From NCBI GenBank assembly GCA_964016885.1, contig OZ024747.1, positions 50,964,001-51,028,000 of the forward strand: a DNA stretch of 64,000 nt, in the 5' to 3' direction. Source of the stretch: Eledone cirrhosa (Eukaryota). Under the pieces are notes generated by a model that made no database searches, was not told where the DNA came from, and saw only the letters and a list, made by a program, of their open reading frames with translations. Positions 15,751 to 27,642 of the stretch are shown piece after piece (positions within the stretch are counted from its first letter, which is position 1; the number at the start of each line of letters is the position of its first letter). Made by a program: the position numbers and the translations under genes.

Positions 15751-15858
15751 TCCCTTCATCAGCTGTTTACTACAGATCATAAATGTTTCGCCGCTTAAAA
15801 CAAAACATCGATCTGTAGCGCGCCCATGGCCTTTTATCCGTCAAAAGGCCACGAGGGA
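15751..15858 (-). ncRNA. Candidate structured RNA with CUGAUGA in a three-helix junction (not a canonical HHR)
   Basis: TCCCT/AGGGA, CGTGGCCTTTT/AAAAGGCCATG and CTACAGATC/GATCTGTAG helices. Junction TAAACAGCTGATGA. Same layout at 27541-27642. Confidence 0.5.
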
Positions 15859-16432
15859 AAGAAGCGATAGTGGAGAGAGGGGAAGAAGATATACATACGC
15901 ACACACACACATACACATACACACACCACACACACACACACATATATATATATATGTATATATATATATATATATATATTATATATATTATGGAATACTG
16001 TTGGCTTTGTGCTACAATATTTTTCTATACCTTTCATTTATATATATATATATATGTATGTATATTCGTCAAATCGGACCGAGGAAACAAAGTTTCCATT
16101 GGTGTTTACATTTGCTAATACTATCTATCGGTCGCAAATCCATGTAGAAGGAGCGAAGTGAAATAAATTGTCTTGCTCAAGGATATAGCGCATCGCCCGG
16201 TCCGGGTGATATATATATATATATATATATATATATATATATATATATATATATAAAATAAAACAACCAGCTATCCACAAAATACTAATTAGTTAGCACA
16301 CCAAACACTAAATTGGGAGAATAGTTAGGTATATCCGAATGTTTGTTGAAAGAGATGAAGTTGGTCAGAGTATCGCTTAAGGCTTTCTCTGTTAATGTAT
16401 TATATATATATATATATATATATATATATATA

Positions 16433-16560
16433 TATAATCAAGGTTTAACAAATAAGAAAAAGTTTCAAAATAAATTTTTAAAAATTAACTTTACTTAAGT
16501 TAAGTTAATTTTTTAAAATTTATTTTGAAACTTTTTCTTATTTGCTAAACCTTGATTATA
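16433..16560. repeat. ~125-bp AT-rich near-perfect palindrome
   Basis: TATAATCAAGGTTTAACAAATAAGAAAAAGTTTCAAAATAAA... mirrored by ...TTTATTTTGAAACTTTTTCTTATTTGCTAAACCTTGATTATA. Confidence 0.8.
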
Positions 16561-17429
16561 TATTTTCTGGGTCGTTAATTTATTAACCTGCCATTGAACC
16601 ACATTGGCATATGGTTGGACAATACATGTGTCCCTTAGCGCCTTGTGCGTGTAGGAACATATACTCTATTATATATATATATATATATAGTATTTAGTTT
16701 GACAACAATACCTTAACATCAGTTTGAGCGACCAGTTACAGCCAGTTTCAACAGAAAAAGGTAGAGAATTCTGGCCAGTTTGGGCCGGTTTGAACATTAA
16801 AGTGTTAAATACAGTAAAACTAAATGTATGTTTATTATATATAAACATACTATATATGACTTCATATAACACTATGGACGATGTATATAAATATACATAA
16901 GTTGTGTGTTTGTGCCTGTGTGGTTGTGCGTGTCTGTGTATGTGAATGTGTATATGTGTCAGTGTGTATGTTTGTGTGTATATATGTGTGTGTGTGTCTA
17001 TGTGTATGTATGTGTACGTCTGTGTATGTGTGTATGTGTGTATGTGTGTGCATATCTGACTAGCCTGTTGTGTTCTTCAACAATGTACTAAATCTACGTG
17101 GATCCTTCTGCCAGGAGAGTTGTGACCGGCAGAGGGTATCAGCAATAGAAACATATTTCCCTTCATATCTCTTTGTACAAAACGGACAAAATGGTTGTCA
17201 CTGAATATCCTGTTGTCATGGAGTGAACACCGTCTACACAACAATAACAAAGATTTCTCCTAACTTTAATGTTATACCTAATTGTGTATGGTTGACGGTA
17301 TATTTAGTCGATGTCCACGTGCTGTTGAAATGTTGGGTAAATATTCTATGGCGGCCGCGGTATATATATAGAGATTTCTACTATAAGCTCAAGGTCAACA
17401 ATTTTAGTAGAGAAAGTTGATTAAATCCA

Positions 17430-17985
17430 CCCCAGTTCATTACTGGTACTTTATTTTATCGACCCCGCAACGCTAACCTCGGCGGGATTTGAACGCTGTA
17501 CGTAAAGAGCTGTAACTCTATGCCGCAAAGCATTTTATCCGACCCTCTACCGATACTGCCAATCAACCACCCTACAATAATAATTGTTTCTACTATTGGC
17601 ACAAGGCCAGCAATTACCCAGTGCATTACTGGTACTTTATTTTATCGACCCCGTAAGGATGAACGGCAAAGTTAACCTCGGCGGGATTTGAAATCAGAAT
17701 GGCAAGGGCCGTAACTCTATGCATCAAAGCATGGTACCCGACCCTCTACGGATACTGCTAATATAATAATGATTTCTAGTATAGGCACAAGGCCAGTAAT
17801 TGTTGGGGAGAGGGGAAAGTCGATTAAAACGACCACAGTACATTACTGGTATTTTATTTTATCGACCCCGCAAGGATGAAAGACAAAGTTAACCTCGGCG
17901 GGATTTGAACTCAGATCATAAAGGGCCGTAACTCTATGCTACAAAGTATGGCGTCCGACCCTCTACCGATACTGCCAATCCAACA
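17430..17985 (-). mobile_element. Three tandem dominant SINEs (the last is a longer variant)
   Basis: Copies at ~17430-17572, 17582-17760 and 17768-17985. The last has an extra TGTTGGGGAGAGGGGAAAGTCGATTAAAACGA segment. Confidence 0.85.
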
Positions 17986-18494
17986 CACTACAATGCTAAT
18001 AATAGCAATAACCATTAGAAATGGTTGAGGAAATGTTTATTTTCTTATCGCAAAATCTTCGTTAGGCACACGAGATTTGATGAGAGGTGTCTCAGGTTGT
18101 TAGGTGCAAGCTAAACTGTGTATTCCCATTGCAAACATGTAATCTCGTGTTCAATCCTATTACACGGCGCCAAAGGCAAGAGTTTTCTACTATAAACACG
18201 GTTCATTAACATTTTTTTTGCCTGTCATATATATATATACATATATATATATATATATATATATATATATGTAGGAGGTGAGTTTTATTGTAGTACAATA
18301 AAGCAATGAAGATATCGGATGAGAAGGACTCTACAGTTTGTAGGACTGCAGTATACATAATATATAAGAACAATAGATGGTTAAAAGAGTTCCATGTATT
18401 TTATTATGCGCATTTCAAAAACAATATGTTGATATGTTGATTTAAAACTGAACTATCCACAAGTGTTTTTTAACCTTCATATCATGTCTTCATG

Positions 18495-18561
18495 TTTTAT
18501 CTGATGAAAACACAAATATTATTGCATGATGATATTTGTTTTTGAAATGCGCATAATAAAA
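18495..18561 (+). ncRNA. Hammerhead ribozyme (family B)
   Basis: TTTTAT CTGATGA [AAACACAAATATTAT...TGATATTTGTTTTT] GAAA TGCGCA TA/ATAAAA, palindromic stem III. Inside a PLE island (18271-18598) with an inverted arm. Confidence 0.8.
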
Positions 18562-24692: not shown

Positions 24693-25414
24693 TATCTATC
24701 TATCTATCTATCTATCTATCAATCTATCTATGCACACACACACACACACACACACACACACACACACACACACACACACACACACACACACACACATATA
24801 TATATATATATATATATATATATATATGTTTCTATCAATCAATCTATCTATCTATCTATTTATTTATCTATCTATCTATTTATCTATCTATCTATCTATC
24901 TATCTATCTAAGAGAACGTCAGCAAGACCGAACATCAAGCGTCCGCCTATCTCCCAACCATCTTGCGCCCACTTCCATAATTATCTTTGCTAAATACATT
25001 TATTGCCTTGCATTTATATATTATGTCATTTCCATCAAGTCAAACGAGGGTACGGCCCCCCAATTAATTTGTAAACGCCCTGTTTATACAGGTGTCTATA
25101 CACGAAATTCCCTACACTCATTATATACATTACGATTCCTGCAAAGTTTTGTGTCATTGCTTCTAACACACCAGAACACATGACTTCCAACCGTTTACAA
25201 ACGTTTCCACACTTCAATTTTTTTCCTTTGATATCAACGGCAAATTATTTAAAAACTTTTGGTCATAATATTTATTGTTTACATTTGAAAGAGAGTGCAA
25301 AATAGTGTCGGACGTACTCAACTTTCATCATCTGATTTGATTTTATTTCACCTACGCATATCTAGAAAATATACGCTTATACTAACACATATATGTGTAG
25401 GAATACTTATACAA

Positions 25415-26063
25415 ATATACAGGAACATTAATGCAGACAGATGCTTGTATACACAAACATACATACACATATACACACAGATACACACAGATACACACAG
25501 ATACACACAGATACAGGAACATTAATGCAGACAGATGCTTGTATACACAAACATACATACACATATACACACAGATACACACAGATACACACAGATACAC
25601 ACAGATACAAATATACAGGAACATTAATGCAGGCAGATGCTTGTATACACAAACATACATACACATATACACACATATACACACAGATACACACAGATAC
25701 AAATATACAGGAACATTAATGCAGGCAGATGCTTGTATACACAAACATACATACTCATATACACACATATACACACAGATACACACAGATACAAATATAC
25801 AGGAACATTAATGCAGGCAGATGCTTGTATACACGAACATATATACACATATACACACATATACACACAGATACACACAGATACACACAGATACAAATAT
25901 ACAGGAACATTAATGCAGGCAGATGCTTGTATACAGAAACATACATACACATATACACACATATACACACAGATACACACAGATACAAATATACAGGAAC
26001 ATTAATGCAGGCAGATGCTTGTATACACAAACATACATACACATATACACACATATACACACA
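25415..26063. repeat. Minisatellite, ~7 units of ~90-100 bp
   Basis: Recurrent core ATACAGGAACATTAATGCAGGCAGATGCTTGTATACAC plus variable ACACAGAT repeats. Confidence 0.9.
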
Positions 26064-26350
26064 GACACATTCACACGAATAGACACAGAGAAATACGCAC
26101 ACACTTATACAAGTACGTACAAGTACGTAGATATACACAATCACATTAATACACATGTAAGTAACCCTAAAGAGACTACAAACATACAGTTAAACAGATA
26201 TACAAATACACATGAGATATTATGTTGTATGTATGCATATGTATATGACTATATATACATGTATATGCATAAACACACATACACACACACACATATATAT
26301 ATATATATATAAATATATATCTGGTTTTTATATATAGTATCTGTTTTTTT

Positions 26351-27054
26351 TTAACTATGGAGTGCTTCCCAGCATTATTTCTGATTTTTGCGTTTCGTTT
26401 CGCCGTTTCTACCCGCCGAAATGCGATTCTCGCTAAATTTATATTTGTATTAATCTCCCGAGTCTTACAATTAACTTGTTAATAATTTTATTGACAGGTT
26501 AATTGTATAAGTTTATTTTAAAAACTACCTGGTTGAGAGCTTATTCGATTTGTGCTATTTATGCAATTTTTTGCATGGAATACACATACTGAATTCATTT
26601 GCCAAAAATCTGGGGTTTTTCCCCTTGTGAATTCCACATGTGCTTCTACGCGGCTCTGTGTCATTCACAAATTTGGTACAGAGCAAAATACCTGTTGATA
26701 ACGTGATATTCCTTGTTCGATCATTATACCTAAAGCTTATAATTTTAAGCAGACAGTATTTTGATTTAGGTGTCATAGAAACCCTGCATTTGGATTTTAA
26801 CATCAATTCCAATGGGTCCAGGTCTGTGTTTTTTATCATTTATTTTGTTTTGACCTGTTTAGCTTGATTTGCTTTTTGGCTTAGGTGGTTGATGCTTTCT
26901 TGACCACTATTTCAGTTTTGTATGGCGTCTTAACATATTGTTTAGCTCTGGATTTTTAACTATGGAGCGCTTGCCAGCATTATTTTTAATTTTTGCGTTT
27001 CGTTTCGCCTTTTCTACCCGCCGAAATGCGATTCTCGCTAAATTTATATTTGTA
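26351..27054. mobile_element. Unclassified TA-associated element with ~100-bp direct terminal repeats
   Basis: 26351-26450 is repeated at ~26956-27054. A diverged copy lies at ~32760-33350 and an inverted end at ~32677-32730. Confidence 0.55.
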
Positions 27055-27540
27055 TATATAAATATATATATGTGTGTGTGTGTTTGTGTGTGTCTGTGTG
27101 AGTGTGTATGTTTGTATGTGTGTGAGCGTGCGTATTTATGTGTGCATAAGCTTTTGTGCGTTATTGCGATAATTTATGTAAATTGGTGTAATTTAATTAA
27201 ATATGGTTACCTCTCTAAAGGGAGATAATACTCTAACCACAGTCAAACCAAGGGATTACACATGTACGAGACAAACTGCTGATAGAATTGACCAATGCAT
27301 TTGAAAGTGGAACACCAGCATTATCGTTGTCCATAGACAGAAGCCAGTTAAAATCATGTAGAATAAAAGAATATACAGATGTATATATATGTATGTGGTG
27401 TTGTGGTGTATATATTCTCTCGTTCACGATTTCACCGAATTAAAATTCATAGAAATTTGGGACTTGACTCCTTCTTCCTCACTTTCTGTTGCTTCACCAT
27501 TTTGTTTGTTTGTTTACACTCGTGTCCCCTTTAATTACGT

Positions 27541-27642
27541 GTCCCAGCGACTTTTTTTAGCCGTTGCTCGCACCAACCGGAGGTATATGGTCTTTAAAGC
27601 GATGAAATACCAATGATGGTTGGAAGATCACTGATGAAGGAC
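27541..27642 (+). ncRNA. Second instance of the candidate CUGAUGA three-helix motif
   Basis: GTCC/GGAC, AGCGAC/GTTGCT and CCAACC/GGTTGG helices. Junction AAGATCACTGATGA. Confidence 0.45.

Follow-up and report, generated by a model that had tools for sequence, protein, structure and literature searches.

Hammerhead ribozymes of type SGC, in which the cleavage site (block S), GAAA (block G) and CUGAUGA (block C) follow one another in that order, cleave and, according to the available passages of their description, occur only in metatranscriptomes, with none found in the genome of a known organism; type CSG is represented in the same passages by only two sequences (Eckert et al. 2023, PMC10085705). 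A hammerhead in which a pseudoknot helix serves as helix II also cleaves, as the available text of Zhan et al. 2024 (PMC11300833) reports. Among mobile elements, the accessible part of a 2026 preprint (bioRxiv 10.64898/2026.07.22.740005) derives non-long-terminal-repeat (non-LTR) retrozymes from the ends of Penelope-like elements, while the Naiads are said, in the available text of Craig et al. 2021 (PMC8557442), to lack canonical hammerheads, and carry 'HHR_core' and 'HHR_half_core' flags without a structure. The subject of the present study is a motif found in two short islands within 64,000 nt of the genome of Eledone cirrhosa (GCA_964016885.1, contig OZ024747.1, positions 50,964,001 to 51,028,000), hereafter called the window. 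Judged by its sequence, the motif is a hammerhead variant without the stem II that defines published type SGC, and it is a predicted ribozyme. Probably it represents a hammerhead in S-G-C order, with a four-way junction in the place of stem II, which is carried by repeats without an open reading frame (ORF) and by the 3' ends of Naiad-like elements, and which likely cuts multimeric RNA into units.

Like HRIMA-1 and its type-SGC variants, the motif combines block order S-G-C with a full core and pseudoknotted stems, and stem I is connected by a linker of about 3 nt to the helix that precedes GAAA (PMC10085705, available passages). In published type SGC, blocks G and C are linked directly by stem II as a plain helix, whereas here the strands after CUGAUGA and before GAAA pair with separate upstream strands that are joined by a hairpin, P2, and the motif resides in animal retroelements. 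The form of Zhan et al. (PMC11300833) is similar in that a pseudoknot helix replaces helix II, and its chemistry is that of the hammerhead, but its available text describes pistol-like connectivity, a helix IV and a minor-groove triplex, and neither a four-way junction nor order S-G-C. The carrier repeats resemble non-LTR retrozymes in being ORF-less tandem units with one hammerhead each (bioRxiv 10.64898/2026.07.22.740005, accessible part), and Naiads in their (TA)n targets, partial tandems and inverted truncated copies (PMC8557442, available text). They differ from the former in their rewired hammerhead, and from the latter in that the window elements have no ORF. Type I hammerheads in non-LTR retrozymes and Penelope-like elements have reportedly been described by Cervera and de la Pena. 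The literature covered, from which figures, bioRxiv supplements and most subscription papers were left out, held no account of this fold, nor any that ties Naiads or retrozymes to permuted hammerheads.

The fold of the two islands

A descriptor for order S-G-C returned two sites from the window, which were the two islands and no others. Their parts, including the paired elements P1, P2 and P3 and a pseudoknot helix (PK), are as follows.

15703..15889, minus strand: island 1, a 5'-truncated copy of repeat family 1, about 180 nt, lying between microsatellites; the family unit is about 640 nt and has no ORF
15854..15858, minus strand: 5' strand of P1, with its partner at 15755-15751, directly after CUGAUGA
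15825..15853, minus strand: P2 hairpin
15820..15824, minus strand: 5' strand of the PK helix, with its partner at 15794-15790, the strand ending at GAAA
15810..15818, minus strand: 5' strand of P3, with its partner at 15778-15770; P3 prolongs stem III across a 3-nt bulge
15798..15809, minus strand: block S, with the stem III 5' strand at 15809-15805, H17 at 15804 (GUU) and the stem I 5' strand at 15803-15798
between 15804 and 15803, minus strand: predicted cut, 3' of GUU
15782..15794, minus strand: block G, with the PK 3' strand, GAAA at 15789-15786 and the stem III 3' strand
15751..15768, minus strand: block C, with the stem I 3' strand at 15768-15763, CUGAUGA at 15762-15756 and the P1 3' strand at 15755-15751
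15589..15708, no strand: (TA)n at the 3' end of island 1, the presumed target site
27404..27655, plus strand: island 2, a 5'-truncated copy of the young family 2, about 250 nt, with the motif intact; the unit is 610-760 nt and has no ORF
27541..27544, plus strand: 5' strand of P1, with its partner at 27639-27642
27545..27566, plus strand: P2 hairpin
27568..27571, plus strand: 5' strand of the PK helix, with its partner at 27599-27602
27573..27581, plus strand: 5' strand of P3, of which 27573-27578 pairs with 27618-27623
27580-27581 (GA), with the bulge 27612-27614 and GA 27615-27616, plus strand: predicted kink-turn
27582..27594, plus strand: block S, with the stem III 5' strand at 27582-27586, H17 at 27587 (AUA) and the stem I 5' strand at 27588-27594
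between 27587 and 27588, plus strand: predicted cut, 3' of AUA
27599..27611, plus strand: block G, with the PK 3' strand, GAAA at 27604-27607 and the stem III 3' strand
27624..27642, plus strand: block C, with the stem I 3' strand at 27624-27630, CUGAUGA at 27631-27637, A10.1 and the P1 3' strand
27654..27698, no strand: (TA)n at the 3' end of island 2

All parts of a hammerhead core are present in the islands: CUGANGA after a stem I strand, GAAA, the pair A15.1-U16.1 and an NUH cleavage triplet. The triplet lies inside P3 and is followed by GAAA and then CUGAUGA. Stem III has 5 bp in both islands and stem I 6-8 bp (6 bp in island 1), the latter being a pseudoknot between the bases after NUH and the bases before CUGAUGA; in island 2, GGUAU-A pairs with the A-UACC following GAA to give stem III, and the next 7 bases pair with the 7 preceding CUGAUGA to give stem I. 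At the A9.G12 end of the core a four-way junction replaces stem II, with P1 and the PK helix joined by hairpin P2, and the PK helix, formed by the strand before GAAA and the CGC linker, is the second pseudoknot. Additionally, U27603 of island 2 can pair with A27638 (positions 11.1 and 10.1). Island 1 is slightly decayed, with one mismatch in a PK helix that has 5 bp in the majority of its family and with G-U replacing G-C in stems I and III; P1 of this family is altered on both sides in subfamily 1c (L128, L189). The (TA)n lies 43 nt downstream of the motif in island 1 and 11 nt downstream in island 2.

An earlier note on the window had described P1, the P2 hairpin, the CGC linker, P3, the AAGCGNNGAAA segment, a 14-nt stretch ending in CTGATGA and the downstream (TA)n, all of which were recovered at the same positions. 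Stems I and III had escaped it, as had the kink-turn signature of island 2 and the helix that the linker forms with the GCG in front of GAAA. Its statement that there is no canonical NUH is corrected by GUU in island 1 and AUA in island 2, and by the NUH kept in 100 of 105 distinct full copies, so that what had appeared to be a three-helix motif without a cleavage site has every core element of a hammerhead. The proposal of a permuted or new ribozyme holds in its first half, while the second gives way to a hammerhead variant that does not need a new class. The motif may additionally have a part in recognition by the reverse transcriptase, as the same note had suggested. No Rfam family fits the islands: the lowest E values were 2.5 for island 1 and 0.14 for island 2, with scores that fall far short of the gathering level. 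Hammerheads of type I, II or III were rejected because order S-G-C is not a circular permutation of theirs and no Rfam hammerhead model matched, and readings as a type II hammerhead, a C/D box, a U3 box B or a selenocysteine insertion sequence were rejected by eye, their required partners being missing.

Conservation and covariation in the genome

The source genome measures 3.0 Gb and is rich in microsatellites. The pattern AAGCGNNGAAA-N22-42-CTGATGAAG has 8,835 exact matches in it, against 2 for the reversed pattern, which places the motif far above chance. Repeat searches with the two islands listed 42 and 41 matches, from 994 and 779 candidates, 40 of which were scored in each case. Pairing was counted in 105 distinct copies, 80 of family 2 and 25 of family 1, all of which extend past the site on its upstream side; many of them were chosen by likeness to the window copies. 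Pairs 1-6 of stem I form in 99-104 of these, pairs 1-5 of stem III in 94-103, and A15.1-U16.1, which closes stem III, in 103. A plain stem II fails, since its third pair forms in none of the 105 copies, or in one if a bulged A is allowed.

MAFFT alignments spanning both families were out of structural register and were excluded from pair counts, and covariation was therefore followed in an ungapped alignment of 22 family-2 rows. Here 95.7% of cells are paired, with 33 two-sided changes, a number reached by none of 500 shuffles, and slid controls are 27-50% paired. Pairing reaches 98.1% in stem I, where three pairs show compensation, 89.2% in P2, which has two-sided changes at three pairs, and 98.9% in P1, which has none. 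The alternative 4-bp stem which the earlier note had placed directly before CUGAUGA is indeed possible in both window copies. Over the 22 rows, however, its pairing reaches only 78.4%, less than that of the pseudoknotted stem I, with which it shares its 3' strand, and it was rejected as the main fold.

Two looser patterns led to families 4 and 5 and to older, decayed families, and across the four to five families every stem differs in sequence. Six family representatives have six stem I sequences, each of which pairs best with its own partner, and among the 720 permutations of these partners the true pairing alone reaches 30/30, although the pairs had been chosen by the descriptor; a seventh representative (L215) gave no match. 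In 855 kb of loci, where overlapping loci are counted repeatedly, the descriptor found 156 matches, against none in the reversed sequence. A single 10.1-11.1 pair is possible, as A-U in family 2 and G-C in family 4, and a stem II of 3 bp is permitted in family 4 and in one metagenome locus (L303). The NUH triplets across copies and loci are GUU, GUC, AUA, AUC, GUA, CUC and AUU.

Kink-turns consist of a 3-nt bulge followed by tandem G.A and A.G pairs beside a canonical stem. Family 2 has this signature between stem III and P3 (G1b.A1n in 103/107 and A2b.G2n in 107/107 instances), whereas family 1 has the 3-nt bulge with Watson-Crick pairs and no G.A pairs, and by eye the kink-turn is not general among the metagenome motifs. 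A competing register of the PK helix is also present in family 2.

The repeat family of L167 and its relatives was set aside, as it proved to be a canonical type I hammerhead. Elsewhere in the genome, on contig C1 at 295.2-296.2 Mb, there is a satellite with dozens of GAAA...CTGACGA units.

Naiad-like loci and published Naiad records

The suspected tie to Naiad-type Penelope-like elements is upheld by the S-G-C fold in metagenomic Naiad-like loci and in published Naiad records. The metagenome set was reached from Naiad remnants in the genome, by way of a full-length Naiad-type protein and its relatives (25 aligned), and comprises 80 of 245 related loci. Thirteen of the 80 have the fold in sense orientation, at a distance of 51-1,828 nt behind the ORF match, and antisense, reversed and complemented controls of the 80 loci gave no matches. 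Only 18 of the 80 tails hold any CUGANGA, and 15 of these 18 fit S-G-C or CSG. All 13 motifs have a PK helix adjoining GAAA and a P2 between P1 and PK with joints of 0-1 nt; P1, which the filter did not demand, adjoins CUGANGA with an offset of 0 in 11 motifs and 1 in two, and the junction score was matched by shuffled upstream sequence in 5 of 390 trials. The pair A15.1-U16.1 is present in 13/13, as the filter required, and a stem II directly between blocks G and C amounts to 0-1 bp in 12/13. Permutation tests on these motifs are circular for the stems that the filter required and were not counted as evidence.

The ORFs of the 13 motif-bearing loci are of Naiad type, as judged from hallmark motifs: all have a YIDD-type motif, 12 have DKA, 10 have CxC at 125-137 aa before DKA, and six have an N-terminal Y[VI]G[EQ]T. 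Four Naiad-like proteins that were tested could not be assigned to a family by Pfam, Rfam gave no matches to 40 of the 80 loci, and no Naiad relative was found in viral contigs. Terminal direct repeats, through which a contig closes on itself, are found in six of the 13.

In the published Naiad consensus file (Craig et al. 2021, File S5), the parts covered were places 1-58 of 62 for CTGATGA, 15 of 23 for CTGACGA and 15 of 25 for CTGAGGA, with motifs split between lines being missed. By eye, nine of the records seen have the full S-G-C fold with P1, P2 and PK (three from Acropora, two from Octopus and four whose name was not visible in the passage), and two further records have a partial fold. 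A pattern built from the published octopus Naiad motif gave two matches, both unrelated.

Type CSG, with a plain stem II, was seen by eye in six records of the same file, three of them identifiable as nematode, and among the 80 metagenome loci in two (L294:3470-3560 and L315:2920-3000). Long tails of 700-2,800 nt with no CUGANGA and no Rfam match occur in L254, L257, L271, L282, L287, L290, L296, L300, L307, L310 and others.

The carrier repeats

A walk upstream for a parent ORF, as had been suggested, leads elsewhere, since the window copies belong to ORF-less tandem repeats and not to a coding element; the Naiad hallmarks (N-terminal GIY-YIG, CxC, DKA and reverse transcriptase) are absent from them. 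Long copies consist of head-to-tail units of 519-760 nt (about 630 nt) with one motif per unit and no ORF, and often have an inverted truncated partner and (TA)n flanks; partial tandems also occur. One array, L093:500-7240, contains at least nine tandem units of family 2b, 721-760 nt long, which differ in length because of a triplet run inside the unit. The copies of family 2 share 98.7% identity.

In 43 of 123 family-2 instances the TA run begins 15-16 nt past CUGAUGA, at an AUAU of the unit, which fits internal initiation on AT-rich targets as in one Penelope-like element (PMC11167929, available text). At the other end, 66 of 80 anchored family-2 instances could be mapped, with L092 left out as a duplicate of L091. 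Seven of the 5' ends fall within -5 to +9 of the predicted cut, a modest enrichment (7 in 1,165 nt vs 47 in 23,872 nt; ratio 3.1, P = 0.012).

At L091:1436-5187 (duplicated in L092) a family-2 copy is joined head-to-head to a Penelope-like element. The latter has a GIY-YIG domain at its C-terminal end and canonical hammerheads, one of which has the same 7 nt after CUGAUGA as family 2. The element presumably belongs to the clade with a C-terminal endonuclease, and the junction hints that family 2 may use the reverse transcriptase of another clade. A homolog search with a 59-aa Naiad remnant gave no matches.

Proposed function and alternative explanations

Comparison of copies and loci demonstrates the core nucleotides, the predicted stems I and III, P1, P2 and the PK helix, the ORF-less tandem units, and the position of the fold behind Naiad-like ORFs. 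P1 and the PK helix adjoin the core, and we infer that one or other is stacked on A9.G12. In the proposed mechanism, P3 and stem III would fold first, followed by stem I and PK as two pseudoknots, and the PK helix or P1 would stack on the A9.G12 pair in the place of stem II. A linker of 2-5 nt may keep the PK helix beside stem I, as was proposed for type SGC (PMC10085705, available passages). Cleavage would take place 3' of NUH by hammerhead chemistry, and would divide tandem transcripts into RNAs of unit length, which may be circular. A Penelope-like reverse transcriptase could then prime at (TA)n slightly downstream of the ribozyme and would read through the cut site on uncut or re-ligated RNA, and the short repeats may be retrozyme-like, non-autonomous descendants of Naiad ends. 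It is reasonably likely that this represents a new and active four-strand hammerhead topology, with the core opened beside G12, shared by Naiads and non-coding parasites.

Several observations weigh against this interpretation. P1 and PK are invariant within family 2 and so show no covariation there, and the covariation counts are inflated by kinship among the copies. The full model is not obtained when the window copies are folded for minimum energy with nested pairs, pseudoknots being outside that method. We know of no tested hammerhead whose backbone opens beside G12 to form a four-way junction, and interruption of the blocks was taken to be impossible by Eckert et al. (PMC10085705, available passages). 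Neither S-G-C nor CSG was found in 65 of the 80 Naiad-like loci, and as 63 of the 80 have tails of at least 300 nt, truncation cannot account for all of them; the motif-negative tails may carry another, unrecognised RNA structure. The Naiad matches found in the genome are all broken or short (one search having been stricter at first look), and 20 of these remnants had no motif downstream, although family 2 is young. The excess of 5' ends at the predicted cut is confounded by TA microhomology, and 59 of the 66 mapped ends lie away from it, from which it follows that templates are mostly uncut or re-ligated. Lastly, according to the available text of PMC11167929, a Penelope-like element inserted in vitro without need of hammerhead cleavage, and its RNA showed no ends at the cut site.

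The last two points, together with the termination of copies shortly past the motif, would also suit a hammerhead-derived fold that no longer cuts and is kept as a structure which the Penelope-like reverse transcriptase binds or starts from. Most copies do read through the predicted cut, and cleavage was dispensable for the one element studied in vitro. This explanation is nevertheless unlikely, given that CUGANGA, GAAA, U16.1-A15.1 and a non-G17 are kept in 13 divergent loci and in 100 of 105 genome copies although every stem varies, and such constancy of a core amid changing stems is the pattern of selection for catalysis. Quite improbable, in turn, is a hammerhead that is active only under certain conditions (as a dimer, with a protein, or through a switch involving the alternative 4-bp stem) or that serves mainly as a circle-making ligase. 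The alternative stem, at one pair of which there are two-sided changes, and the competing PK register of family 2 would provide for a switch, and the tandem and self-closing contigs would fit circular templates; on the other hand, the alternative stem is less well paired than stem I and below it in duplex energy, and the length of stems I and III suffices for folding as a monomer. That the islands have no Rfam match and no plain stem II might also suggest a new ribozyme class, or a non-catalytic three-helix RNA merely sharing CUGAUGA and GAAA with hammerheads. This is very improbable, because stems I and III, with their compensatory changes, and NUH are located exactly where a hammerhead core needs them, which makes the motif a hammerhead variant and not a new class.

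A cutting hammerhead in S-G-C order would offer a direct answer to the apparent absence of hammerheads from a widespread clade of animal retrotransposons, namely that search descriptors presumed the canonical strand order, and it makes the Naiad hammerhead question testable. If true, it would overturn the report of hammerhead-less Naiads, and it would mean that non-circularly permuted hammerheads, so far a matter of environmental RNA, are present in thousands of copies in the genomes of animals. Taken together with type CSG in nematode Naiads, non-circular permutations would then be an ancient form of the hammerhead that is abundant among animals, and counts of ribozymes in eukaryotic genomes would be too low. 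The assumption that would be broken is that the GAAA block is inseparable from its stem II partner.

Other features of the window

Canonical and rewired forms of the hammerhead share the 64-kb window. Canonical type-I-like cores are found at 23587 (minus), 44212 (plus)/44089 (minus), 32177 (plus)/31369 (minus), 61897 (minus), 13177 (minus) and 19012 (plus), two of these sets being inverted pairs. A scan of the whole window against Rfam returned mostly microRNA models driven by microsatellites among 150 of 352 rows.

Two further elements lie on the minus strand. Positions 1-5108 hold an apparently intact non-LTR retrotransposon, with a 625-aa stop-to-stop frame and an endonuclease-reverse transcriptase frame that is open for 1,099 aa up to the window edge, and which appears L1/Tx1-like from a reading of the frames. 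At 10272-11324 there is a remnant of a Mariner-like transposase, judged from its translation.

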